DNA of 63,980 nucleotides, counting the filler, from Reclinomonas americana ATCC 50394 (taxonomy: Eukaryota): the NCBI GenBank assembly GCA_048213135.1. It is 6 parts of 3 records of this genome, joined end to end, with 100 filler letters (N's around TTAATTAATTAA, not from the genome) between each part and the next. Parts side by side here need not be neighbours in the genome. Positions count along the whole stretch, not along the records: positions 8,949 to 20,090 come from PS015097.1; 5 more parts are not named here. The stretch is one strand, 5' to 3'. Of the stretch, positions 2,967 to 62,955 are shown one piece after another. The notes under the pieces were generated by a model that saw only the letters and a list, made by a program, of their open reading frames with translations, was not told the origin of the DNA and ran no database searches. The position numbers and the translations under genes are program-made. The first letter of the stretch is position 1, and every line of letters starts with the position of its first letter.

Positions 2967-4102
2967 TCACTCATCATAATCTTCATCGGGCTCGGATGCA
3001 AGAGGCATCTGCGCCACATCAAAGACGAGCTCACGCTCGTCGGCCAGCGCGAAAAGCAACTCCTGCTGCACGGGATCCATCTCGTCAGGAACCAGCAGTG
3101 TTCTGGAGTTTGGATACTCTTTGTAGCGACCCAGATCCTCGTACGTGTCCACGACAAGGCGAGCCACTTCCACGTGGCTCTTGCCGGCGAGCAGCGGCAT
3201 CTTGACGATGGTCTGGAACAATCGACGGCCGCCGCTAGACTCGTCTTGCAAGTGGAGAGTCCAGCGACCAACACGGTCTTCGACTGCGTGGGTGATCTGC
3301 GTGGACATGCGGTCCTTCTCCTCGCTCTCTGCGCACCAGAGGAGTGTGAGAAGCACAGTCACGGTAGCTGTCAACGAAAAAGGGACAACGACTCACCAAT
3401 CAGACGACGGCATGACAGCTGGCCACGGATCGACAGCGTTGTTGTCGTAAGCTGCGGCAGCAGTAGTCAGTATGTGATGAAGAGAGAGAAAGAGAGCGAA
3501 GAGAGAAGAGAAGGCACTCACGTCCTTGATGCGTTTGTCTTTCATCTCGATCTGCGCGTTCAAGCTCTGCATCATCCTCTTGAGATAGACATCCCTCGTT
3601 TCGAGAAAGGCCACGTTGGTCTGAAGCACTGATTGGAGAGCCTCGACTTGTACTCTCAACTGTTGTTTGTTGACATCAGTTGCATCTCTTTCAGCATTAT
3701 CAGCTCAGTAAACAGGGAGACACGCACGAGGATCACCGACGCCTCCGGGCTCATCTGCGCAGTGCTGGTATGGCTTGCTTGCAGCACTGGAGAAGAGCGA
3801 TGACAGTGAGCAAGAGAGTGTGAGTGACTGTGCTCACAGAGAACTGTGAGGCACAGACAGACAAGGACGGGAAGCAGAGAGAAAGAGAAGCAGTGCATGT
3901 CACATACACACACACACACACACACAGGAGAGAAAGTGGTAGAGAGAAAGAGAAGCATGAGTGTGTCATCTTCACATGCACAGAGAGAGAGAGAGAGAAA
4001 GAGCTCAAGAACACACTCACAGTCTGACATGCAATGGTGCTGTTGGAAGACATGGCATGTCCGAAGCACCGAGGTTGTGCGGAGGAGGTGAGGTGAGAAC
4101 AT
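2967..4102 (-). CDS. Array gene type B: coiled-coil plus divergent BTB/POZ-like domain
   Basis: Coiled-coil exon LRVQVEALQSVLQTNVAFLETRDVYLKRMMQ and final exon ...RLVVDTYEDLGRYKEYPNSRTLLVPDEMDPVQQELLFALADERE; homologous to type A. Confidence 0.65.
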
Positions 4103-5856: not shown

Positions 5857-6986
5857 TCAGTCATCATAATCTTCATCGGGCTCGGATGCAAGAGGCATCT
5901 CGACGGCATCGTAGTTGACATCACGCTCGTCGGCCAGCGCAATGAGCAGCTCCTGCTGCGCGGGATCCATCTCGTCAGGAATCCTCAGTGTTCTGGAGCG
6001 TGGATACTCTTTGTAGCGACCCAGGTCCTCGTACGTGTCCACGACAAGGCGAGCCACTTCCATGTGGCTCTTGCCGGCGAGCAGCGGCATCTTGACGACG
6101 GCCTGGAACAATCGACGGCCGCCGCTAGACTCGTCTTGCAAGTGGAGAGTCCAGCGATCACCACGGTCCTCGACTGCGCGGGTGATCTGCGTGGACATGC
6201 GGTTCTTCTCCTCGCTCTCTGCGTACCTGAGGAGTGTGAGAAGCACGGTCACGGTGGCTGTTAACGAAAGGGGACAACGACTACCAATCAGATGGCGGCA
6301 TGACAGCTGGCCACGGATCGACAGCGTTGTTGTCGTAAGCTGCGGCAGCAGTAGTCAGTATGTGATGAAGAGAGAGAAAGAGAGCGAAGAGAGAAGAGAA
6401 TGCTCACGTCCTTGATGGATTCGTCTTGCATCTCGATCTGCGAGTTTAAAAGCTGCATCATCTCCTTGAGATAGGTGTCCCTCGATTCGAGGAACGCTTT
6501 CCTACTCTGGAGCAGTGATTGGAGAACCTCGACTCGTTCTCTCAACTGTTCGTTGACATCAGTTACATCTCTTTCAGCATCATCAGCTCAGCAACAGAAC
6601 ACACGCACGAGCATCACCGCCGACACCTCCAGGTTCATCTGCGCAGTGCTGGAATGATGTCTTGCTTGCGTGCGCAGCACTGGAGAAAGAATGATGACAG
6701 TGAGCAAGAGAGTGAGAGTGAGTGTGTCAACAGAGAACAGCGACACACAGACAGACAAGGACGGGAAACAGAGAGAAAGAGAAGCAGTGCGTGTCACATA
6801 TACACACACACAGGAGAGAAAGTGGGAGAGAAAGAGAAGCATGTGTGTCATCTTCACATATGCATGAACAGAGAGAGAGAGAGAAAGAGCTCGAGAACAC
6901 TCACCATCTGACATGCAATGGTGCTGTTGGAAGACAAAGTAAGTCCGAAGCACCGAGGTTGTGCGGAGGAAGTGAGGTGAGAACAT
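5857..6986 (-). CDS. Array gene type B
   Basis: Same exon structure as 2967-4102; final exon ends EPDEDYDD*. Confidence 0.65.
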
Positions 6987-8848: not shown

Positions 8849-8892
8849 NNNNNNNNNNNNNNNNNNNNNNNNNNNNNNNNNNNNNNNNNNNN

Positions 8893-8904
8893 TTAATTAA
8901 TTAA
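8893..8904. other. Artificial scaffold linker TTAATTAATTAA (also at 20135-20146, 49811-49822, 59553-59564, 62900-62911)
   Basis: Identical 12-mer with stops in all six frames, each flanked by short N runs of similar length. Confidence 0.97.
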
Positions 8905-9081
8905 NNNNNNNNNNNNNNNNNNNNNNNNNNNNNNNNNNNNNNNNNNNNCCTTTTACCCTTTTACCCTTCCTTCGTTGTCGTTCCTTCCTACCTACGTCGA
9001 CCACCTACCTCCCTTTCCCTTCCGTCCGTCCTACGTACGTACTACTACTCGTCTCCTTCCTACCCCACCCACCTACTACTA

Positions 9082-16187: not shown

Positions 16188-17315
16188 CTACTCCACTGTC
16201 ATGCACTCGTGCAGCAGGCGCTCGACCAGGTTGAGCGGCAGGCCTTGAACCGAATCAATGGCGCCGTCGATTTCGCGCACGTACTCGCTCATTCGCGGAT
16301 GTTCGACAATGAAGCCGCCAGCAGTCGTCAGGAACTCGGGCAGATGCGCCTGCAGGGAGAGAGAGAGAGGTCAGCGGAAAAGAGATGCAAACAAACAACA
16401 AATGCTGCGCACCAGTTCCTGAATTCGGTCTTCCGGAATTTCTGACCAGTGCACCGTGGCCACGTCGACATCCTTGCAAATCTTGCCTGCTCTCCAGCGT
16501 CAGCAGCAGCAGCAGCAGCAAAAGAGAGGAAAGAAAAAAGTGGCAAAAGCATACAAGCACTGGGGCTTCCCAAGTGGTCCCCCACCCTAGTACTGACCCA
16601 GCTGAACGCGGCTTAACTTCACAGATCGGACGGGATGTGGTGTTTTCCGCGTCATGTGGCCGTATGCGACTGCTTGAGCGAAAGAGTGCACGGGGGGATT
16701 GCAGGAAGAGTGCAGGAAGAGTGCAGGAAAGAGAGCACAAATAGCCCACTCTGCGTGCCACACACACACACACACCAGTCTTGAGGTTGGAGGCGACCAC
16801 CGCCGAGAATGTTTGCACCGACGAGTTGGAGTAGGAGCTGCAACATGCGACAGTGAGCACACACACAACGCACAACAGCACAGAACACACACACACCGAA
16901 TGAACTCGACGGCCTCCTCCACGCTCTCGGGCTTCTCGCGCACCACGCCATTGTAGACAGTGACCTGGTCGCACGTGAGCAGCACCCAAGTGTCGGCCGA
17001 GTGCATGTACTTGTCGGCGTCGGCGGCCACCACCGTGCTCATGAGTCGCTCCCGCTTCGCCGAGGCAATCGTCAGCGGCAGCACATGCGGGTCGGCATTC
17101 TGGCGCAGCGCCGGGTCCTTCTCGTCAATGTTGGGGTCCATGGTCTCGTAGGTGCCTGAAAAGCGTGTGTCAGAGAGTGTGCATGCATGCATGTGCGTGT
17201 GCGTGTGTGAATGCACACCGGCGCCAAGCAGCTGGTTGAGAATGCTTTGCCGGAACTTGCTGGTGGAGCCGAGAATGATCTTGGCGCCATGGAAGGTGAC
17301 GAGAGAGGATGCCAT
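16188..17315 (-). CDS. maf: Maf-family nucleotide pyrophosphatase
   Basis: KIILGSTSKFRQSIL, PNIDEK, LLTCDQV..NGVVREKPES, AGGFIVEHP, DSVQGLP; five exons. Confidence 0.92.
16549..16667 (-). rRNA. 5S rRNA: 5S rRNA gene (119 nt), inside Maf intron 3
   Basis: Minus strand GCATACGGCCACATGACGCGGAAAACACCACATCCCGTCCGATCTGTGAAGTTAAGCCGCGTTCAGCTGGGTCAGTACTAGGGTGGGGGACCACTTGGGAAGCCCCAGTGCTTGTATGC, then TTTT. Conserved CCCGTCCGATC, AAGTTAAGC and AGTACT; helices I, II, IV and V pair. Confidence 0.95.
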
Positions 17316-17412: not shown

Positions 17413-17860
17413 TCACTTGCGCTTGTCCGAGTCCTTGACGGTCTGCGCGGGGGGCGCCAGCACCGCAAAGATGACGGCGAAGATCGTGCACAGAGCGCCC
17501 CACGCAATGTTCACTGCAAGACGACGGTGTGAGACACACGAAAGACAGCGACGTGAAGAGAAACAAGGCGCAACTCTGCGGGTCAAACATATTGGCATTG
17601 AAGAAGCAGTACGCCTGGGCGGCGGCGCCAATCAGCATTGAGCTGGCGGCAGCATGAGCAAAGGCCTGCGCAATTTGGTTCACCATGCACACAGTTAGTG
17701 GCACTTGCACAGAGCGAGCGTGAGAGGCATATGGAGGAACACTACGTGCGTGGGCTTGACGGAGAGAGGAGATCTAGGGGGAAGAAGACGTGCGCGGAGA
17801 ATTAGGTATCTCTCTCTTGCTCTTGCTTCTGTCGCTCTCCATTGCTGCACCAGCGCGCAC

Positions 17861-17896
<36 letters not shown>

Positions 17897-18016
17897 TGTG
17901 TGTGTACGTGCTACTCTTAATTCTACTTTGTGCGCGTATGTATGTCAAGCCTCACCCGAGTGAGCGTAGCAGTGCAGAAAATGCCGCTGAGCATGATGCA
18001 GAGCACTCCAAGAGAC

Positions 18017-18077
<61 letters not shown>

Positions 18078-18379
18078 CAAGTCAGCAAGAATATGCACTG
18101 AAGAGAGACGGCATTCGACACGCAACTGAGTGAGAGCGAGCGCCGCGGTGACTTGCTCATCGGAAGCTCCCTCCGCGAGCAGCTTTGGCATGTGCACTGC
18201 CAGTGTGTGTGCGTGAGGGGGAGGGGGAGGGGGGAGGGTGGCAATTGCAAACCCTCTCTCAAATTCACACACAGCACCACGCAACATTCGACCACCGTAC
18301 GCGGTGCCGCGATGAAGAACACGCCAGTGGCGGTGTAGTAGGTGGAGAGGAAGAGCAGGAACACGCGACCAAAGCCCAT
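17413..18379 (-). CDS. Small ~4-TM membrane protein, paralogue 1
   Basis: Spliced MGFGRVFLLFLSTYYTATGVFFIAAPRTVVE/LHMPKLL.../SLGVLCIMLSGIF.../AFAHAAASSMLIG.../MNIAWGALCTIFAVIFAVLAPPAQTVKDSDKRK*; homologous to the adjacent gene. Confidence 0.75.
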
Positions 18380-18773
18380 GATGGATGTCAAGGAAAAATC
18401 GATCGATTGATGATGCCACAGGACAGAGTTTCGGGAGATGCGGGCACAAGCTCGATCCTGTGTTCTACAGGCACTCCCTGCCGCATCACCTTCCCGCGAA
18501 GTGCACTCGACAATGCATCAAATGTAAGAGCGACTTCACGACATCATGACAACACGCCTTTCCGAAGCCAGGCGACCACAGAAGCAGGTGCATGACGACC
18601 TCTGCCTTGAGGAACGAAGGTGAGGTTCCGGATTTGCGAGCAGGAGAAGGTACAGCGCGATCGATATCTCGCTCCTCCGAAGCTGAGCCAGCTGGCGAAT
18701 CCACGAGGCAAGGCAAGTCCTCATCAGAGGAGAGCTCCGCGAATTCGTGCAAGAGCGTTCCGCAGTCGTTTTA

Positions 18774-19449
18774 CTACTTGTGCTTGTCGGCATCCGGCAC
18801 CCGCCTGGACGGTGGTGCCAGCAGGAGCATCATGGTGGCACTCAGCACGAGCGACGCAGACCACGCCATGCCCGCTGTGGGTGGACACAAACACTTGACA
18901 AAGCATGCAGCACAACAACAACAAAACATGCAGATGCACACCTGTCGTGTTCACAGTGGCGGCGTTCTTGAGCGTGGAGACCGCCAGCGCAGCAGCGAGA
19001 AGCATCAGCGAGACAGCACCAGCGCGTGCAAAAGGCTGCGGAACAACACACACACACATCAGACAGCATCTCGCACACAAGCGCATACACAGAACACGCG
19101 TAACTCGTGAGGGTGTCGCCGACCAGAGCACCGCCGAGACAAAGAACAACACCACGCCAATCGATCTGCCAGTCATCGATCAATTCACGCGCATTTGCTC
19201 TTCTTTTTTCTGCGTTCCTCACGCAACTGCACCAAGGCAACAGCACCACGAATCTGCTCACTCACTGCAGTCGCGTCCACCAGCCGCGGCATGTGCACTT
19301 CATGCGCAGAGAAGTGTGAGACAACAAGGCATAGTAATGTGGAGCAAATAACAGACGCAACAGTCCAGCATGAACCGCGGTGCAAACACGCACAGTGCGC
19401 CCACGCAAGTGAAGGCCGTGGAGAGCAAGAGGAGGAACGCCCGAGACAT
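18774..19449 (-). CDS. Small ~4-TM membrane protein, paralogue 2
   Basis: MSRAFLLLLSTAFTCVGALCVFAPRFMLD/LHMPRLV.../SIGVVLFFVSAVLWSATPSR/PFARAGAVSLMLL.../AGMAWSASLVLSATMMLLLAPPSRRVPDADKHK*; same four intron positions as paralogue 1. Confidence 0.75.
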
Positions 19450-20090: not shown

Positions 20091-20271
20091 NNNNNNNNNN
20101 NNNNNNNNNNNNNNNNNNNNNNNNNNNNNNNNNNTTAATTAATTAANNNNNNNNNNNNNNNNNNNNNNNNNNNNNNNNNNNNNNNNNNNNTCCCTCTTGT
20201 GATGCTCTTTGTAACGATCTTGAGTCAGTGACGTGCTTCCATTTCTTTCTCTCACGATTGTTCTTCTGCAG

Positions 20272-23200
20272 GCTGCCGCTGGAGCTGGAATGTGTATCCG
20301 GCTTCACGCGTGGAGAGCCAGCGACTGGTGAGTGGAAAAGAAGATGACACACACACACATAGAGGGAGAGAGAGAGAGAGAGCTTCCTCTACGCGCCTTT
20401 CCCCTTCAATCCCCTTTCCTCACCAAACCCACGATCACCAGGTTGTCCCCTTGGCGTGCCTGTACACGCCCAAGAAGGAGATTCCGAACCTGCCGGCGCT
20501 GCCGTATGGTGTGTCGCCCTCCAAGCTGTTTCTCGCCAGTTGTTCCAGTCGTGCTCACACAGCTTTGAATCACAGAGCCTGTGTGCTGCCGCAGCTGCGC
20601 CAGCAAGCTGTCGCCCTACTGGTGCGTGTTGTCGGACCGACTCGCAGCTGCGCATGGTGCCTGACCCTCTCTCACGAACACAGCCGCGTGGAACTGGCCT
20701 CCAAGACGTGGACGTGCCCCTTCTGCACCACTCGCAACCAGTTCCCGCCGCACTATGGTGAGTGCTTCCCGTGCATGCACCTGTTGCCAAAACGGAAGCT
20801 GACCACCGCCATCGTGCACAGCGAACATCTCAGAGACGCAGCTGCCGGCGGAGCTGTTCCCGCAGTACACCACCATTGAGTACACGCTGCAGACGAGCCC
20901 GCAGGTGACAAGATTTGTTTTTTATTTTCGCTCTCGGATGCCCTATCTCACCCCTCCCTCTCCCTTCCCTTTCGACCCCACAGCCACCGGTTGTGCTCTT
21001 TGTGATCGACCTGTGCATGCCGGAGGAGGAGCTGAAGGCCGTGAAGGACTCGATCCTGCAGTCGGTCAACCTGCTGCCGCCGCACTTTTTGGTCGGCCTC
21101 ATCACATTCGGCACGTTTATCAACGTGTATGAGCTCTCGTACACCGAGTGCTTCAAGTCGTACTGCTTCCGTGGCAACCAGGAGTTTACGGCGGAGCAGC
21201 TGCAGGAGACGCTGCAGTTGCTGGCTGCACCGGCGCACGGACTGGCCATTCCCAACCGGTGAGCGAGTGCCTTTCTCCTTTCTCCCTCTCCCCTCCTCCC
21301 CTCCTCCACCCTCCTCTCTCTCTCTCTTCTCTAAATTTTCCCTCTCGCAGATTTGTGCAACCGTGGAACGCTCCCGACGTCGATGTGACTCTGTCGTCGA
21401 TTCTGGAGGAGTTGTCGCCCGACCCGTGGCCGGTGAAGCACAACAACCGTGCTCACCGCTGCACTGGTGCCGCGCTGTCGCTGGCCATTAACCTGCTGGA
21501 GCTGACTTGCGTCGGCTCGGGCGGCAAGATCATGCTGTTCCTGGGCGGCCCGTGCACGGCTGGACCCGGCACTGTGGTTGGTGAGTGCACTATCATCATC
21601 ATCATCACATCGGCGCGCGCCATTTGCACCTTTCACTCACTCACGCATTCTTGGGGGCAGGCATTCCGTTCACGGAGCAGATGCGTTCGTACAACGACAT
21701 CAACAAGGGTCGTGCGCAGTACATGGCCAAGGCCACCAAGTACTACGAGGGCCTGGCGGAGAAGTGCATTCGCAACTGCCACTCGGTGGACGTGTACTCG
21801 GCCAGTTTCGATCAGGTCGGTCTGCTCGAGCTGCGCGATCTCGTGCACAACTCTGGCGGCTACATGTACACCACTGAGGAGTTCAACTCGGACTGCTTCC
21901 GCAAGGTACGCCTCACGACGATCACTGCAAATGGACGGGCGTGTGTATCACTCATAATTGTGCGCAGACCATGGAGCGCGTGTTTGCGCAAAACGCCCAG
22001 TACGAGCTGACCATGGGCTTCAACGGCCTGGTGGAGGTGCAGACGAGCTCCGAGTGGAAGATCTCCGGCGCCATTGGCCCGTGCGTCAGCATGCGCAAGG
22101 CGTCGCCGAGTGTCGGCGACTTGGAGATTGGCGAGGGCAAGACGTGTGCGTGGCGCGTGTGCGGGCTCGCCCAAGACACCACGCTGGGCATCTATTTTGA
22201 AGTCGTCAGCCAGGTTGGTCTCTTGGCGAGCATCGTGTCCCTGTTTCGCGATACTAATTACCCTTCCCTTGCCCTTTTCTTCCTCCACTGCAGCACAATG
22301 CCCCGCTGCCACCCGACGCGCAGCGTTTCATCCAGTTCAGCACCGTGTACCAGCACTCATCGGGCCAGCGTCGCCTGCGCGTGACCACCTTGGCCTACCG
22401 CTGGGGCTCCACCGACCACATGGCGGACCTGGTGACTGGATTTGACCAGTACGCCTCGATTGCGCTCATGGCGCGCATGGCGGTGGAGAAGACGAAGCAC
22501 GAGCCGACCATGGACATTTTGCGCTGGCTCGATCGCAACCTCATTCGTCTCATGGCGCGCGTGGCCGAGTACGAGAAGGATGCGCCGCAGACGTTCCGCT
22601 TGTCGCCCATGTTCCTGCTGTTCCCGCAGTTCATGTTCCACTTGCGCCGCTCGCCGTTCCTCCAAGTGTTCAACCACTCGCCCGACGAGACCACCTTCCA
22701 CCGTTGCATCTTGATGCGCGAGAACGCCCGCAACACGGCCATGATGATCCAGCCGCACCTGCGCAAGTTCTCGTTCAAGGGTCCGCCCGAGTCGGTGCCG
22801 CTCGACGCCGCCTCGATTGAGCACGACGCCATTTTGCTCCTCGACACCTACTTCCACGTGGTGGTCTTCCACGGCGATGTGCGTAGCAGTTGAAAGTGGC
22901 TTTCACTTGCTCTCGTGCGGCGAGCTGACCTGAGTTGTTTACCTTTCTCTGTTTGTCGCACAACAGACGATTGCGCAGTGGTTCAAGGAGAAGCTGCAGG
23001 ATCGGCCCGAGTACGAGCACTTCCGCAAGCTGCTGGGTCACCCGGAGGCCGAGGGCATGAAGCTGCTGGAGAACCGCTTCCCGCGCCCGCGCTTTGTGAC
23101 ATGCGCGCAAGGGTCGAGCCAGGCCCGTCTCCTGACGTCCAAGCTCAACCCCAGCATCACGCACAAGAACATGGGCGGCGTGCAGTCGGGAGCCGGCGAG

Positions 23201-23272
23201 GTCATCATGACGGATGATGTGTCGCTGCAGGTGTTTATGGAGCGCCTGGTGCAGCTGGCGGTGCAGCAGTAG
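20272..23272 (+). CDS. SEC23: COPII coat subunit Sec23 (5' end missing)
   Basis: RWSWNVYP, zinc finger CRSC...WTCPFC..RNQFPPHY, LFVIDLC, RCTGAAL, FLGGPCTAGPG, GFDQYAS, FPQFMFHLRRSPFLQVFN, GSSQARLL, TDDVSLQVFM. Confidence 0.97.
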
Positions 23273-23921: not shown

Positions 23922-25039
23922 TCAGTGGATTGAGGCGCGGTACGACGCCACCAGCGACTGCACAATGCGGTTCGGCACCAGCGTCGCGTCCGTCAGCGGC
24001 TCACGCGTCACTGGAGAAACTTGGTTCGACGACAGCCTATCACGAGAAACAACAAAGTCAGAAGTCAAGCGAGAATATGAAAAGGCCACGACAATGCACG
24101 CAACCACTCAGTAATGGCGGAGCGCTCGTACGTGTTGCCATCCTGTGCCACCACCGGGTCCTCGAACAGCAAGTTACTGATTGGACAGACGAGTGCGCGT
24201 GGAGGCTCGCTCGATTTGTGCGGCGCGAACCACAGCCCGCCTGCATGCCAACAAGCCGCGCGGTGTTAGCATCATCACAGAGAGAGGGAGAGAGAGAGAG
24301 CAGAGAGGAAAAGGGGGGCGCACCATCACGAGCGCCTGCCTCATCGGGCAACAACAGTTCGGCGGCAAATAACATGATCTTGCGCCGATCGCCAAACACG
24401 TGGATGCCGAGGTCTTTGAGATCGCCGTCGCTAAGCGTCTTCAAGATGCGCACATCATCAATGCCATTGGCCTTGAAGAGATCCTGGTAGCGATCGAGGC
24501 GACACGAACGAAGCCAACGAGACACTTCGTTCTGTGACTCGCCGGCATTGGGGACGGCTGCCGACGCGGTCCCACCGGCGGCACCACTGCCTGGCGCCGT
24601 CGACAAGCCGCTGCCGAGGGTCATCGCAGAGGGCGTGCCAAAGAACAGGCTGCTGCCCTGCTCCGAGTCGGAGCCAAAATGTTCAAACTACACAACAGAC
24701 AACATCAGGTGAGACGACTCAACCCCTCGTCCTTCTCGCACACACATGCGCCCACGTACCAACGACGGTGCCACAGACTCGCGGACCGAATGGCCGTTGG
24801 AGAGGCCGCCGGTGGCGTCGAACAGTGAGAACTGACGGAACGCCTCCTCAAAGTCCAACGAGTCGCCGAGGCTGGCGGGCGCTGGCGCAGGGCGCGGCAC
24901 CACAGGCGAGTTGACGGCCGAACCCATGCCATTTGACGCCAACAGGCCCAAGGTCGTCTGCGGCGGCGAGCCCGCGCTGCCCATGGTGGTCAGCGGCGAG
25001 GCAGACGGGTCGACCACTGTCGGCGGTGGTTGCTGCTGC

Positions 25040-27701: not shown

Positions 27702-30700
27702 ATGGCAGCGTCTTCTCGTCCGAATCAACTGCAGTTTGACTTGTCCCCGGCCGACTTGGCCACACGGTTCGTTCCACCACACCATTCTTGTTGCTGTTTC
27801 CTTGCGTTTTCATGTGGATGATGAATGGGTGTGGGTGTGTGTATGCGGGATCCAGTGCCGATGCTCTGATTGAGCACATGCGCGGGCTTATTGACTCGGT
27901 GGTGGCGACGCCAGTGGGCGAGCGCTCGTTTGCTAATGTGGTCGAGCGATTGGCACTGGCCGAGGGTCACTGGGAGACTCGTTGCGCGCGTTGCACATGA
28001 CACCTTTGTGTGTGTGTTTTGGTGTGTCACTCACTGATGGAGGCACAGAGAGCTCTAATCTGACCTTCTTGTCATATGTCTCCGAGTTGCGCTTTCCGTC
28101 GTTGTTGTCTGACCACGACAACCGCCCCACTGATTGCTCGAGAGTGTGCGTGCGCGTAGGGACAAGGATGTGCGCGATGCGTCGACCGAGGCCAACAAGA
28201 AGCTGGAGGCGTTTGAGATTGAGAGCGACATGCGAGTGGATGTGTATGAGGCGCTGAACGAGGTCAACGAGAAGGTCGCCAGTGGCGCCGAGAAGCTGGC
28301 TGATGAGTTGCAGGCGCGCTTGTTGGAGCACATGGTGCGACAGAAGCGACGCAACGGTCTGCACTTGCCGGTCGAGGTGCGCCAGCAGGTCAAGGAGCTG
28401 AAGACGGAGCTGAGTGAGCTGCAAATCTCGTTTGAGCGCAATCTGGCCGAGGACAAGACCGAGCTGCAGTTCAGCGAGGAGGAGCTGGCCGGTGAGACGC
28501 AATCATTGTTGTACGTCACGGCCGCCTCCGTTGTGAGGCTCACGTGTGCACAGGTGTCGATCCGGGCCTGCTCAGCACGCTGAAGAAGGACGAGAGCAAC
28601 GGCAAGCTGATTCTGACGCTAAAGGTGATTGCCTGGCAATCCAGTGTATGTGTGTGTGTGTGTGGCTATGTTTGTGTTCCTCACTCCGTGTGGCGTGCGC
28701 AGTACCCGCACTACTTCCCGGTGCTGAAAAAGTGCCGCGTCGAGGCCACTCGTCGGACAATGGAGCGCGCCTACTCAATGCGTTGCCAGGAGGTCAATGT
28801 CGGCATTCTCGAGCGCATTCTGAGCCTGCGCCAGAGTTTTGTGGCAGTGGCTCCACTGTGTGTTTTCCGCATTGTGACTGACTCGAGTGCGTGCGCATTT
28901 GCAGAGTTGGCCGAGCTGCTGGGTTACAAGACTCATGGTATGTGTATCACTCCCTCATCCTCACCCTGTACGCTCCCCTCACTCTCGTCTTACAATTGTG
29001 CAGCGCACTACCAGCTGGAGATTCGGTTCGTGCAGTGTGTCAAGGAGTGAGTTGATGTTGCGATGTGCTGACTTGCTCTCTCCTTTTGCTTCCCCGTTGC
29101 AGCATGGCCAAGGTAAACAACGATCGTGCTTTGTAAATCATAATTCACAACTCACCCTCGAGTCGCACAGACGCCCGAGACAGTGATGGAGTTCCTGTAC
29201 GATCTGCGCGAGCGCCTGGACGGCAAGGCGCACGAGGATCTGGCAGGCCTGCTCGAGTTGAAGCGAGCGTTGCGTCGATCGAATGTGCCTTGTGAGTTTC
29301 GCGTTTGTTCACGATTGAAACAACAGAGAGAAGGAGGCTGCCGGCGAGGCGTTTGAGCCTGACCTGAACGCGTGGGACTTCCAGTACTACCACACCATGC
29401 TGCTGGAGCGCAAGTACCAGGTGTGCATCTTGCTGTAGTTTTCTTGTCGAAGAGAGAGAGAGAGTTCTTCGGTATTCAACGCGTGTTCGTGCAGGTTGAC
29501 CACGACAAAATCAAGCAGTACTTCCCCGCCGACCGTGTGTTGCGTGCGCTGTGTCCTTCTGACATCTACTCCGAATCTGCTGAGCTCTGCTGATTCATTG
29601 CTGACAATGAGCGTGCATGCGTGCAGCATCACGCACGTGCTGAAGCTGTACGAGACGCTGCTGTCGCTGCGCTTTGTGGAGTTGCCGGAGGGTGAGCGCC
29701 ACACGTGGCACAAGGATGTGAGCCAGTTCGCAGTGTACGATCAGGCGTCGGATGCGCTGATTGGCCACTTTTACCTTGACCTGTTGCGTGATTTTTGAAC
29801 CAACAACCGAACGTATTGTCTTTCTTTGTTGACGCATTGTCGTAGGTGGCCTCGCGAGGGCAAGTTTGGTCATGCCGCCGCCTTCCCGCTCGTGTGCGGT
29901 CATCGCCTTGCCTGTTGCGTTGCATATGAAGGGAGATGGCTTGCATGTCGACAATGTCCACTCACACTCACGTGTCGCAGCTGGTGAATTCGAGAAGCCC
30001 GCCTCCGCCATGGTGTGCAACTTCAATCCGCCCGGTGCCGACGGCGTGTCGCTGTTGAAGCACGACGAGGTTGTTACCTTCTGCCACGAACTTGGCCACG
30101 TGTTCCACGGTGTGTGCAGCACCTCGCCGTACGCTCGCTTCTCGGGCACGCGTGTGGAGCGCGACTTTGTCGGTGCGTTGTTGTAGATGTTGTGCACGTG
30201 TGGTTGACGATTTGTGTGCTGAAAAAATAGCGCGTGCACAGAGGCACCGTCTCAGATGATGGAAAACTGGTGAGTGTGGGGGAAACTACGTGTTGTCTCG
30301 GTGTCCAGCCATTCACTTATCTGCTGGTGACGGTGCAGGTGCTGGCAACCCGAATTTTTGGTGCGTTATCGACTCCATCATTTCTGCTTGTTGTTCACTT
30401 TCTCACACCTTTCCACGTGATGGCGCAGCGCGAGGTCTCGGGCCTGTACTCGAACCGCGAAGAGAAGCTGCCGGAGGATCTTCTGCACAGCTTGATTGCC
30501 GCCAAGCACGTCAACGACGGCCTCCTCTACCGTCGCCAGCTGTTCTTTGGTATCTTTGGTGAGTGGCGAGCGATATTCTTGCATACAGGTGGGTGTGCGA
30601 CGACTCACGTATCCAAAATCGCCTGTGCGGGCACAGACATGACGATTCATTATCTCCACTGGGCGGTCTGTGCACACTGGATCGCAACGGCCTGTGCATT

Positions 30701-31467
30701 TGATTGACTCTCTGCGTGTGCGCTGACAGGATCGCGACTCAACGGCACCGCCGCCCAACACGGAGGAAGTGTGGGCCTCTCTGCGCAAATCGGTACACCA
30801 ACAGAGTGTGTCCTGCTCTGAAATCGAGTGCTGAACATTTTCATCGCAGGTCACCCTCATGAACCACTCTGTCGGCACGAACCCGTCCGGTGAGCGGTAA
30901 ACATTTCTGCTTGTGGTTAAGTGCGCTGTGCTCATTCTTCTTCTTCTCTATCCAGCTGGTTTTGGTCACATGATGGGCTACTCGGCCGGGTGAGTGGCCT
31001 GTCGATATAGTCGTTGTCTTTTTCTCCATCATTCTGACCTGATTCTATGTGCACAGCTACTACGGGTGTGACTTTCTCTGTGGATTCGTGCGTCGGAGTT
31101 TTGTAGTCTCACTTGTGTTGTCACAGCTACGCGTACGCGGAGATGGCATGCTGCGACATGTTTGCGCAGTTCAAGCGCGCTGGCGTCATGAATCAAGAGC
31201 GTTGCGTGCCGCACAGTCGATGTCTTCTTGCTTCGTCCGCCCTCGCTCATCGTTTCGGTGGGTGGCAGTGGGTCGTCGATACCGCGAGACTCTGCTCTGC
31301 AAGGGTCATTGCAAGGATGCTGCCGACTTGCTGCACGAGTTGCGCCCTCCTTTACTGTGTTTTTGAATTGTCGCACTGTGCAGGTGCTCATTGCGCTCCG
31401 TGGCAGCTTCTTGGGTCGCGCGGTGGCGCCGGACGCGTTCCTGGAGGAGCTCGGCATTGCCAAGTGA
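27702..31467 (+). CDS. THOP1: Thimet oligopeptidase/neurolysin (peptidase M3A); 25 introns by manual splicing
   Basis: [35 protein letters not shown] (HEXXH), [39 protein letters not shown]...DAFL. Confidence 0.95.
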
Positions 31468-31599: not shown

Positions 31600-34500
31600 T
31601 TACGCCCAAATGTCGCGCTGGTAGTGGCCGGTGGTGGTGAGAGTTATCAGGTACTGACTGGCCTCGTCGCGGTCCATGTTGGCATGGTCGATGAGCATGC
31701 TGACGAGGATGCGATGCACGTCCTTGACCATCGAGTTGGCATCACTGCGTGGCGAAGAGTGAGACGCGTGTGCGTGCGCGGTCGTAGAGCAACAGGAAGA
31801 AATCACACATCGACGCACCCGCACACATAGACAGTGGCGTTTTGCTTGGTGAGCATGTTGACCAGCACTTCGCCGTCCTCGCGCATCAGATCCTGCACGT
31901 AGGCGCCGCCGTACCACATGCCGTCGACAGGTTCGCGCGAGAAGGCCGCGCGCAGTTCGGTCAACACGCCTTCGGTCTTGTACGTTGCCAAGTCGTCGCG
32001 GTAGATAAAGTCCAAGTCGCGACGGCGGCAGCCAAAGTACAGCCACGAGGGGCCGAAAGAGCGCACGGCACCCGAGCTCTTGAGAGCCAGCCGGTGCTCG
32101 AGGAATCCACGGAAGGGCGCCACACCGGTGCCGGGGCCCACCATGATGATGGGTGCCAGCGGGTCTTTTGGCAGGCGGAATTCAACAGTGGCGCGTCGGA
32201 ACACGGGCAGCTGCATCTGCACCGATTGATCGCAGAGAGAGAGAGAGAGAGAGAGTGAGTGAGTGAGAGAGTGGGAGAGTGAGTGGGAGAGAGTGAGAGA
32301 CAACTGAGTGCGGACAGAGACGGGTGAACAGATTGTGACAGTACATGCATATATGTGTATGTGTGAGTGCGTGTGTGTGTGTGTGTACACAAACCACAGG
32401 CGCAGCGCGATTCGCATCGGCAGCATCAATGAGACTGTCGGCGATACCGCCCAACCAAGAGGTGCAAAGACCGACACGCTGGCGGCGACGCGGCAACTCG
32501 GTCTCGTACTGCACGGCGGAGAAGCAGAGGTGCACCATTCCCGGGGAGCGCAGCAGGCTCGACGCCACCGAGTAGTAGCGCGGCTGTTGCAGAGGTACCA
32601 CCTCCAAGAGATGTTCAAGTGGCGGGAAGCATGTCGGCACCTCCTCCAGCACCTCCAGCAGCGTCGATTGTCCACATCGCACATGCTGTCGATACTCGCG
32701 CTCTCCCTGCGGCGAGCACCAGTGCAGCAGGCGCTGCCGATCATTGCTCGACGCGCAATACTCTGCCATCACGCGCAGCAGCGAACGCGTGACCGTGCGT
32801 AGATCATAGATGTGCGTAAACAGATCCTCCACACACCAGGGCGTGGTCAAGTGCTGCAAGACAGCACACCGACTCAGCGCTCCGTTGCTGCCGACGCGAT
32901 GCAGTGGGCCTGGGCGACCGTGATTACCCGCGGTGGCGGCGGCAGTGGCAGCTGCCGCAGCAGCTGCAGTGGTGGTCACGGACTCGAGCACCGGCAGCGC
33001 ATCGTAGGAGACGGTAGAGACAAGCAGAGGTCCCGTCGAATACGGAAACGGAGATTCGTCGGCACCCGGCGACGGTGACGGAGTCCACGATGGAGCATAA
33101 CACAAGCCGCCGCCACCGCCACTGCCACTACTACTGCCGCCAAAGCCGGCAGTTCCGTCACCACTGCCGCAGCCGCCCTCAGCAGCACACTCATCCACAT
33201 CGTCCACACACTCACCACCGTCGTCGAGCGGAACCACCGACACCACATCCTGCGGCTCGTAATGCAAGCGCCGCAACACAGCCAACACCTCACTGCGCGG
33301 ATTGGGACACAAGACGCCAATCGCATCACCCGGCTCGTATTGCACACCGGCCTTGGCCACCGACAGCTCCATGTGGATCACACGACGGTCGCCCTTGACG
33401 AGAACCTTTGCCGACTGCACATCGGCCAGTGCCGGCGCCTCTGCACTGTAGTCCTCCCCTTCGTGTCGGCGAATGGCCGCGAGACGCTCCTCCCACGTCG
33501 GCAAGTCACTCGGCTGAATGAGTTCGTGCCGCACCAGACGATGCCGACACGGACGCAGGCGCATCCACACTCCCGCCGAAGTGACTGTGGCCAGCGAGGT
33601 GGCCGCCGTGGTCGGCGCCTTGCCTCCGGTGAAACTGGCGGGCGACGGCGGCAAGCGTGGCGGATCGGCTAGCACCACATCGATGACGGCGGGGTTGCGT
33701 GTCGTCTCACGTAGTGGTGAGGGACCACCGGGGGTGACCGCTGGTGAGCTCTTCAACGCTGGCGACACCTGCGGCGATATTTGTGGCGACGATTGGGCAG
33801 AGTTGCGAGCGCGACGAGCCAGCGATTTCCACACGGCACGAGACCACGGCTCGACCACCAGCTCCAAGCTAACAACAAATCACACAGGGTGAGGGTGACT
33901 GCGGCCGGGGCGAGGAGGGGAAGAGAGAGTGTGCGACGCACCCCACAGCGTCGTCGGCAAGACCGATTTCATGAAACTGGTGAGCGCCGAGCTCCAGGAA
34001 ACGCTTGTTGAAGTTCCGACCGGCGGCACAAAAGTTGGTGTAATTTGAGTCGCCAAGAGCTGCAATTCGTTCACCGCCACCACCACCATCATCATCATCA
34101 GCGAACAAGAATAGAAGGCAAACCCCCCCATTCTCTCTGGAGACGCACCCAGCACCGAGTAGCTGCAGTTCTCCAGATAGTTGGGCGGCAGTGCACGCGA
34201 GCGGAGCTTGCGCATAAACTGCAAGGCGTTGTCAGGCGGATCGCCATCGCCAGTCGTCGACACCACCATGACGACAAACTGTTCGCGCTGGAGTGCCTCC
34301 TGTCGGGGAGGTGCATGGGGAAGTGTGTGCGTGTGAGCCACCAGAGGATTGACTGATGCAGAGTATCAGTCACACGCCAAGAGAGAAGGAGCAATCACGC
34401 GCTGTGACTACGGATGACGACCACAGACAACAGAGAGTCCAGTGGGAAAAAAGAGAGCACACGTGCGCGCGTGTGTGCGTGTGTGACAGAGAGAGGAGCA

Positions 34501-34751
34501 CGGGAGGAGCATGTCGCGCACACTCTCTCTCTCAATGAAGCACGCCAATCGGCACAAGAGAAGACGGAGTGGGAGAGAGGGAGGAGAGAAGAGCATGCGT
34601 GTGTGCATCCGAGCAACGCAACAAGCGCGCAATCATTCATGCATTGCAGCTCGGGCTCGTGACCGCTCTCTGTGGCCAGCAGGCACACTTGTCGGGCAAT
34701 CTCCTCGGCGTTGCCTGTCTGCGAGCCGAAGAGAACCAGCACGCGAACCAT
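31600..34751 (-). CDS. MTRR: Methionine synthase reductase (diflavin reductase)
   Basis: FGSQTGNAEEIA, STTGDGDPPDNA, LGDSNYTNFC, GLADDAVG/LELVVEPW (MTRR-like), QPRYYSVASS, MVGPGTGVAPFRGFL, LYFGCRRRDLDFIY, YQRDIWA*. Confidence 0.9.
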
Positions 34752-49629: not shown

Positions 49630-49872
49630 TGTTGTTGTTGTGTGTGTGTCGTCGTCTCTTCTTCGTTGTTGTTGTTGTGTGTTCGCGAGAGTGTCGTCGT
49701 GTGTGTCGTCGTCGTCGTTACGTACGTACGTTTACGGTTTTGGTTGGTACGTACGTCGTCGGTCGGNNNNNNNNNNNNNNNNNNNNNNNNNNNNNNNNNN
49801 NNNNNNNNNNTTAATTAATTAANNNNNNNNNNNNNNNNNNNNNNNNNNNNNNNNNNNNNNNNNNNNACACGC

Positions 49873-59240: not shown

Positions 59241-59686
59241 CGCAAAGGGTGAGTGAGTGATGGGGGAAGGGAGGGGAAGGGAGGAAGGAGGGTGAGAGAG
59301 TGCAAGAGCGAGTGAATGAAAGGCAGATAGAGAAACAGCGACACAAGACTGCAGACAGGCAGGCAGAGATAGAAAGAAGGACTCAGAGAGAAAGAGAGTG
59401 TATGTGTGAGAGAGAGAGAGAGGCGAGTGGAGAGAGGGGAAGGGATGAGCGAATGAGTGCAGTGGGGACTGCAGATAGTCAGGTAGAAAGACAGACTGAG
59501 AGAGAGAGNNNNNNNNNNNNNNNNNNNNNNNNNNNNNNNNNNNNNNNNNNNNTTAATTAATTAANNNNNNNNNNNNNNNNNNNNNNNNNNNNNNNNNNNN
59601 NNNNNNNNTCACTCTCTCTCTCTCTCTCTCTCTCTCTCAATCTGTCTCTCTGCGTGCGTGCGTGCGTGCGAGTGTAATATTATCAC

Positions 59687-62830: not shown

Positions 62831-62955
62831 GAGGAGGAGGACGAGAGAGAGAGAGNNNNNNNNNNNNNNNNNNNNNNNNNNNNNNNNNNNNNNNNNNNNT
62901 TAATTAATTAANNNNNNNNNNNNNNNNNNNNNNNNNNNNNNNNNNNNNNNNNNNN

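Follow-up and report, generated by a model that had tools for sequence, protein, structure and literature searches.

What decides which form the 5' splice site (5'SS) of an intron takes? The question is raised by two neighbouring genes of Reclinomonas americana ATCC 50394 (NCBI GenBank assembly GCA_048213135.1), found in a stretch of DNA of 63,980 nucleotides (nt) made of six parts of three records joined end to end. We call this whole stretch the window and count all positions along it. The two genes, paralogue 1 (P1) and paralogue 2 (P2), appear to have four introns at homologous positions and differ in the donor of two of them, together with the last base of the preceding exon (position -1). 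Taken as a whole, the best explanation of our data, and one that we hold to be probable, is that two arrangements make a GT-AG donor adequate: a G at the exon end combined with a loose intron side, or another base at the exon end combined with an intron that almost always starts with GTTGCG. In what follows, a slash marks the boundary between exon and intron.

P1 (17413..18379) and P2 (18774..19449) are arranged head to tail on the minus strand, P2 being about 400 nt upstream of P1. P1 is predicted to consist of five exons (18379-18286, 18196-18127, 18016-17956, 17665-17575 and 17513-17413) encoding a hydrophobic protein of 138 amino acids (aa), and only the splicing of its four introns restores the open reading frame (ORF). 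P2 likewise has five predicted exons (19449-19362, 19297-19228, 19165-19105, 19035-18942 and 18874-18774) and encodes 137 aa. The exon lengths of P1 and P2 are 94/88, 70/70, 61/61, 91/94 and 101/101 nt, the intron phases are 1, 2, 0 and 1 in both, and in the protein alignment each of the four P1 junctions shares its column with its P2 counterpart (31, 54, 75 and 106), which agrees with the shared intron positions described in the initial annotation of this locus. The P1 and P2 proteins share 56 of 136 aligned residues (41%), with a global alignment score of 242 compared with a mean of -26 (standard deviation 12, maximum 22) for 1000 shuffles (z=21.7). Each contains three or four hydrophobic 19-mers (in P1 at residues 6-24, 51-69 and 108-126), in keeping with the membrane-like character that had been assigned to the pair. 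Judging from these features, P1 and P2 are probably old tandem duplicates that have kept four homologous spliceosomal introns.

The first two introns start with GTTGCG after a base other than G in both genes, as had been reported. In P1, intron 1 (18197..18285, 89 nt, phase 1) has the donor AAT/GTTGCGTG and intron 2 (18017..18126, 110 nt, phase 2, with a (GT)n run inside) the donor TCA/GTTGCGTG; in P2, intron 1 (19298..19361, 64 nt, phase 1) starts with ACT/GTTGCGTC and intron 2 (19166..19227, 62 nt, phase 2) with GCA/GTTGCGTG. At the other two of the four homologous introns the donor class differs between P1 and P2. Intron 3 (phase 0) is 290 nt long in P1 (17666..17955), where its donor CGG/GTGAGGCT (CGG/GTGAGG at 17955) has a G at -1 and belongs to the loose class, and 69 nt long in P2 (19036..19104), where the donor is CGA/GTTACGCG (CGA/GTTACG at 19104). 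Intron 4 (phase 1) begins with AGA/GTTGCGCC (AGA/GTTGCG at 17574) in P1 (17514..17574, 61 nt) and with CAG/GTGTGCAT (CAG/GTGTGC at 18941) in P2 (18875..18941, 67 nt). All these introns lie on the minus strand, and the four coordinates and motifs first given for introns 3 and 4 proved correct. We define class A as donors starting with GTTGCG or GTTACG, and class B, the loose class, as all other donors. Within the paralogue pair alone, none of the six GTT[GA]CG donors and both of the two others have a G at -1, for which the exact probability is 1/28 by hand calculation.

How well are these junctions placed? Each of them was compared with all frame-keeping, stop-free GT-AG alternatives within ±45 nt, scored by alignment to the other paralogue, and all eight were top-scoring. 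In P1, introns 1 to 3 ranked first among 30, 4 and 2 candidates (29, 3 and 1 alternatives) and intron 4 had no alternative; in P2, introns 1, 3 and 4 ranked first among 13, 5 and 9 candidates (12, 4 and 8 alternatives) and intron 2 had none. Moreover, retention of the intron breaks the ORF in seven of the eight cases, the exception being the 69-nt intron 3 of P2, which is open.

Comparator genes were curated against fetched homologues so that their boundaries are independent of the donor motif. The first is a thimet-oligopeptidase-like M3 peptidase (27878..31467, plus strand; hereafter M3) with 25 exons and 24 introns, recognised by Pfam PF01432 on single exons. Its predicted product of 650 aa can be aligned over the whole length with 27 of the 29 full-length homologues, and with the remaining two (P0123 and P0228) only to about residue 460-470. 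Collinearity with the homologues requires two micro-exons, of 10 nt (29103-29112) and 9 nt (31057-31065) on the plus strand, both of which were skipped by the gene finder. When GT-AG alternatives within 36 nt were scored over the whole protein against 12 homologues, all 24 M3 junctions ranked first, with margins of 19 to 678 and one junction having no alternative. Eight M3 donors are GTTGCG (with C, A, C, T, T, T, C and A at -1), 15 others all have a G at -1, and one is A/GTTTTG. The donor of M3 intron 10 (29421, plus strand) and that of P2 intron 4 (18941, minus strand) have the same 11-base context, CAG/GTGTGCAT. In addition, M3 contains a second in-frame, stop-free intron of 69 nt (28836-28904, plus strand) besides that of P2 (19036-19104, minus strand); retention of either would add 23 residues, and the M3 intron was read through by the gene finder.

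The second comparator is Sec23 (20274..23272, plus strand), with Pfam Sec23 domains collinear over its exons and 10 supported introns, all of which rank first against 12 homologues. Its first exon was left out, the 5' end being lost near a join between parts of the window. Nine of its ten donors are loose with a G at -1, and the remaining one is GAT/GTGCGTAG (intron 10). A flavoprotein reductase (FAD_binding_1; 31600..34751, minus strand) with five ab initio introns is a weaker comparator, checked against only two homologues of about 30% identity, with margins of 0-28 and a tie with another site at intron 4. One of its donors is CTT/GTTGCGTT (T/GTTGCG) and four have a G at -1. Searches of protein collections with Sec23 and the reductase found no close relative of the window's proteins: Sec23 reaches at best 61-62% identity, to many unrelated eukaryotes, and the reductase at most 30-37%, the best match of one reductase exon being a Tribonema protein with 30% identity.

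Does the link between donor class and exon end extend beyond the pair? We tabulated it in 42 supported introns (8 of the paralogues, 24 of M3 and 10 of Sec23), each checked by homologues or by the sister paralogue. A G at -1 was found in 0 of 14 class A donors (A in six, T in five and C in three) compared with 26 of 28 class B donors (Fisher's exact p=2.3e-9), and we reject chance alone as the cause of this association. With the paralogues excluded, the counts for M3 and Sec23 are 0 of 8 and 24 of 26 (p=2.5e-6). The link that had been proposed from two genes therefore holds in this larger sample. The two class B donors that have no G at -1, one preceded by A and the other by T, are AGA/GTTTTGTG (M3 intron 5) and the donor of Sec23 intron 10.

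The two classes also differ in how strictly their intron side is defined. Class A has T at +3, C at +5 and G at +6 in 14 of 14 donors and G at +4 in 13 of 14. After a G at -1, the loose-class introns start with, among others, GTGAG, GTGCG, GTACG, GTGTG and even GTAAAC, and A stands at -2 in only 8 of 28. Conversely, where the exon does not end in G, the intron start is almost always GTTGCG and rarely GTTACG, GTTTTG or a perfect GTGCGT. This near absence of non-G donors lacking a strong intron side leads us to infer that selection maintains the donor rule.

The same tendency is found among ab initio introns outside the curated genes, where a G at -1 precedes 1 of 10 GTT[GA]CG donors and 21 of 31 others (p=0.0025). 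The finder scored donors from +3 to +8, blind to the exon bases, and had been seeded with both motifs; it mispredicted several M3 junctions, so we treat the ab initio counts as a secondary result only. The GTTGCG class accounts for roughly one intron in four by either count, with 9 of 39 over the three comparators and 10 of 41 in the ab initio set. Two candidate donors of this set stand in tandem 3 nt apart at 24104-24108 (minus strand), TGA/GTGGTTGC and GTG/GTTGCGTG, and the second would be the sole GTTGCG donor with a G at -1. Elsewhere, the predicted genes at about 2967-3575 and 5857-6640 (minus strand) have identical 30-nt acceptor contexts, and both have GAC/GTGAG donors, in which a strong canonical hexamer follows a non-G base at -1. 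The arrangement suggests a segmental duplication of recent date beside large gaps.

Base composition provides a control for these counts. Exonic GT that is not a donor has a G before it in 24% of cases; for GTT the share is 11% in exons and 16% over the whole window. The 26 of 28 class B donors with a G at -1 lie far above the 24% found before exonic GT (p=1e-14). For the predicted donors it is firmly established that the loose class needs a G at -1 and that the GTTGCG class does not.

Several points weigh against the proposed reading and are best considered together. The 0 of 14 in class A is lower than the GT background (p=0.02) and not clearly lower than the GTT background, because G is scarce before GTT throughout the window. 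The 62 GTT[GA]CG sites of the window comprise 14 supported donors, 10 ab initio donors and 38 sites that are neither, and G precedes 5 of these 38 (p=0.31 against supported class A); GTTGCG itself is not enriched (54 sites against 52.4 expected). We consider that "non-G" would be better read as "G dispensable", an avoidance of G by the GTTGCG class going beyond these data. Exceptions to the rule exist in A/GTTTTG, T/GTGCGT and the ab initio G/GTTGCG at 24104, and the sample is limited to five genes of a single 64-kb window. Curation of M3 and Sec23 was done by hand, with known family motifs as a guide, before testing, and an earlier test of M3, in which the scored segment moved with the junction, ranked only 19 of the 24 curated sites first. 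We judged that test flawed, since a junction that drops residues brings additional conserved sequence into the scored segment, and used whole-protein scoring instead. In P2, the margins are thin at intron 3 (242 against 237, a margin of 5) and at intron 4 (242 against 240, a margin of 2), and both are among the four introns that carry the class switch. Finally, every junction is deduced from the sequence, so that the splicing as drawn is predicted.

Could the switch then be an illusion of annotation, with some or all of the eight paralogue junctions misdrawn or the genes unexpressed? The thin margins of P2 introns 3 and 4, the fact that P2 intron 3 can be read through and the nature of the junction evidence would all fit, as would the failure to place the two proteins in a family: none of the ten single exons of P1 and P2 matched Pfam at E<=10 (the exons being searched singly and not as spliced proteins), the P2 read-through ORF (18724-19179) had no relative among 609 candidates, and an Atlas search for small-protein relatives gave no usable match. 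Against this stand the equal lengths of exons 2, 3 and 5, the common phases and alignment columns, the alignment score far above the shuffles, the first rank of all eight junctions and the 11-base donor context that P2 intron 4 has in common with M3 intron 10. The same donor rule, moreover, is found in the genes checked by homology. We consider such an artefact very unlikely.

Why would the exon end vary at all? For introns in phase 1 or 2, position -1 is the first or second base of a codon, where a G would alter the amino acid, and only 1 of 14 class A introns is in phase 0, compared with 12 of 28 in class B. Junctions 11 and 12 of M3, both of class A, interrupt the codons of conserved residues (V in 17 of 20 homologues and L in 18 of 20), amino acids whose codons cannot carry a G at the position concerned. 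On the class B side, many phase-1 and phase-2 junctions interrupt the codon of a conserved G, E, D, A, W, C or R residue. The remaining class A junctions are at variable residues, so that the support for a coding constraint is partial. The last exon base may be largely set by the protein code, with the intron start adapting to it, and a codon change at a homologous junction could then bring about a change of donor class. P1 and P2 differ in this way: the codon split by intron 4 is A/TG (Met) in P1 and G/CG (Ala) in P2, and intron 3 follows CGG in P1 and CGA in P2.

Since P1 and P2 differ in class at two of their four homologous introns, an intron lineage is not bound to one class. This bears on a different explanation, in which the GTTGCG introns are copies of a mobile family (introners) inserted after non-G bases, so that class would mark origin and not function. 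Introner elements of Micromonas, Aureococcus and others are known as many short introns with a recognisable common start, and the GTTGCG introns likewise are many, short (median 68 nt) and have a donor 6-7-mer in common. Introners are, however, alike along their whole length, whereas the GTTGCG introns are alike in the donor only and switch class at homologous positions of old paralogues. Comparing the intron cores (positions 9 to -7), we found mean local alignment scores of 8.4 within class A, 7.6 within class B, 7.9 between the classes and 6.9 for shuffled class A cores, so that class A cores show no excess of similarity over other introns or over what shuffles allow; homologous P1/P2 cores score 5 to 10. 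The median length in class B is equal (68.5 nt). An introner origin is, in our opinion, highly improbable. The initial annotation had concluded that the two classes interconvert under selection and are not relics of introners: the interconversion and the rejection of introners are borne out by the class differences at homologous positions and the unrelated cores, and the part played by selection stays at the level of inference.

The classes resemble each other at the other end of the intron. CTNAY branch-like motifs occur in 10 of 14 class A and 22 of 28 class B introns, and the acceptor has a C at -3 in 11 of 14 and 28 of 28, respectively. U12-type introns have /RTATCCTT as donor and a branch site resembling TCCTTAAC. 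We rejected this type for class A, all 14 donors of which are GTT[GA]CG.

How might a GTTGCG donor be read? The class A bases at +4 to +8 (G, C, G, T/C, G/C) resemble those of class B at +3 to +7, where GTGCG is common, and GUUGCGU equals GUGCGU with an extra U after the GU, which corresponds geometrically to a +2/+3 bulge or to a one-base shift. Our best guess is that GUUGCGU may be read as GUGCGU with an extra U, through bulged or shifted pairing with the U1 small nuclear RNA (snRNA) and then by U6. Insertion of a single T would, by the same logic, be an easy route between the classes: it could turn G/GTGCGT into a redundant G/GTTGCGT, after which the exon G would be free to be lost. A shifted or bulged U1 register is characterised by clearly better pairing than in the canonical one and by rescue through a suppressor U1 designed for it. 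The pairing energies tell against bulging or shifting, which appears energetically weak. In duplexes predicted by RNAduplex with the canonical U1 5' end, from which the host's U1 may differ, the mean is -0.9 kcal/mol for class A (n=14) and -7.2 kcal/mol for class B (n=28); two of the 14 class A sites take a shifted register, with about -2 kcal/mol, which is also all that the strongest class A duplexes attain.

The near lack of pairing between class A and canonical U1 could also be taken to mean that GTTGCG donors are read by a dedicated guide, either a second U1 snRNA or a small RNA with a 5' end complementary to GUUGCG(U). One major spliceosome would then have two U1 specificities, with the G at -1 irrelevant for class A. 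Put as a dual 5'SS code, GUUGCG would be recognised independently of the exon by a dedicated RNA, for example a variant U1 whose 5' end is of the CGCAAC type, the remaining donors would depend on canonical U1 and an obligatory exon-end G, and a change in the neighbouring codon might shift an intron from one system to the other. The invariance of class A from +3 to +6, far stricter than in class B, is in favour of this alternative. On the other hand, canonical U1 accounts well for class B, the one-base offset between the class A and class B motifs fits a single machinery with a bulge, and an Rfam scan of the window found only a 5S gene and no snRNA gene. We also know of no organism with such a two-U1 split. 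Overall, both the dedicated guide and the dual code built on it seem to us unlikely, although clearly less so than an artefact or an introner origin.

The full-length 5S ribosomal RNA gene detected in that scan (16548-16667, minus strand, 103 bits) is on the same strand as a Maf-like gene, whose matches to Pfam Maf lie at 16899-17315 (model positions 1-88) and at 16191-16349 (model positions 144-186). As it stands between these Maf-like exons, the 5S gene lies within an intron or gap of the Maf-like gene. The joins between the parts of the window (8849-8948, 20091-20190, 49767-49866, 59509-59608 and 62856-62955) each consist of 44 N, TTAATTAATTAA and 44 N, and one of them removes the 5' end of Sec23.

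Returning to the two ways of making a donor adequate, their practical consequence is that gene prediction in the R. americana genome needs two donor models. Before this class was modelled, our finder overlooked many GTTGCG introns or set them in the wrong place, and naive finders mischained genes or drifted to T-rich donors. If the rule applies genome-wide, R. americana would offer a clean natural system in which exon-side and intron-side recognition of the 5'SS are almost fully separated and in which the junction codon dictates the choice of donor. Experiments could then ask which component of the spliceosome, RNA or protein, recognises each side and how sites pass from one class to the other in evolution.

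Pairing of U1 in shifted registers was reportedly first described by Roca and Krainer in 2009. Shifted and +2/+3 bulged registers have been studied in human cells by Tan et al. (NAR 2016; PMC4856993), who give 54-68 predicted bulge +2/+3 sites among 201,541. By that figure such sites are a tiny minority in human, compared with about a quarter of introns here, a disparity that also speaks for a dedicated guide. Searches of the literature for GTTGCG with intron and GUUGCG with splice yielded nothing on a donor class among the matches listed, which is weak evidence that the motif is unpublished.

The closest parallels are the known classes of 5'SS, which are characterised by opposite responses to perturbation of U6 m6A, SNRNP27K or LUC7. 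The AG//GUNNN class and the NN//GURAG class, or U5-type and U6-type, are anti-correlated, and simple evolutionary routes lead from one to the other (reviewed in PMC11732430). The same anti-correlation between an exon-side G at -1 and the intron-side consensus is found here, where the split is almost binary and the intron side is GUUGCG (+3 U, +4 G, +5 C), not GURAG: class A departs from //GURAG, with T at +3 in 14/14, G at +4 in 13/14 and C at +5 in 14/14. On the exon side, only the G at -1 seems to count here (26 of 28 class B donors), with A at -2 in 8 of 28; the known exon-side class has AG at -2 and -1. Left-handed and right-handed 5'SS have been described as regulated by LUC7 paralogues (Nat Commun 2025; PMC11842720), and their match to the consensus lies upstream or downstream of /GU, as in our two classes. 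Unlike in that system, the right-handed motif here is non-canonical. The donor split in R. americana is an extreme, near-binary form of the known compensation between the exon side and the intron side of the 5'SS. The concept is known; what looks unusual is the GUUGCG class, its near-binary coupling to the last base of the exon, and its frequency.

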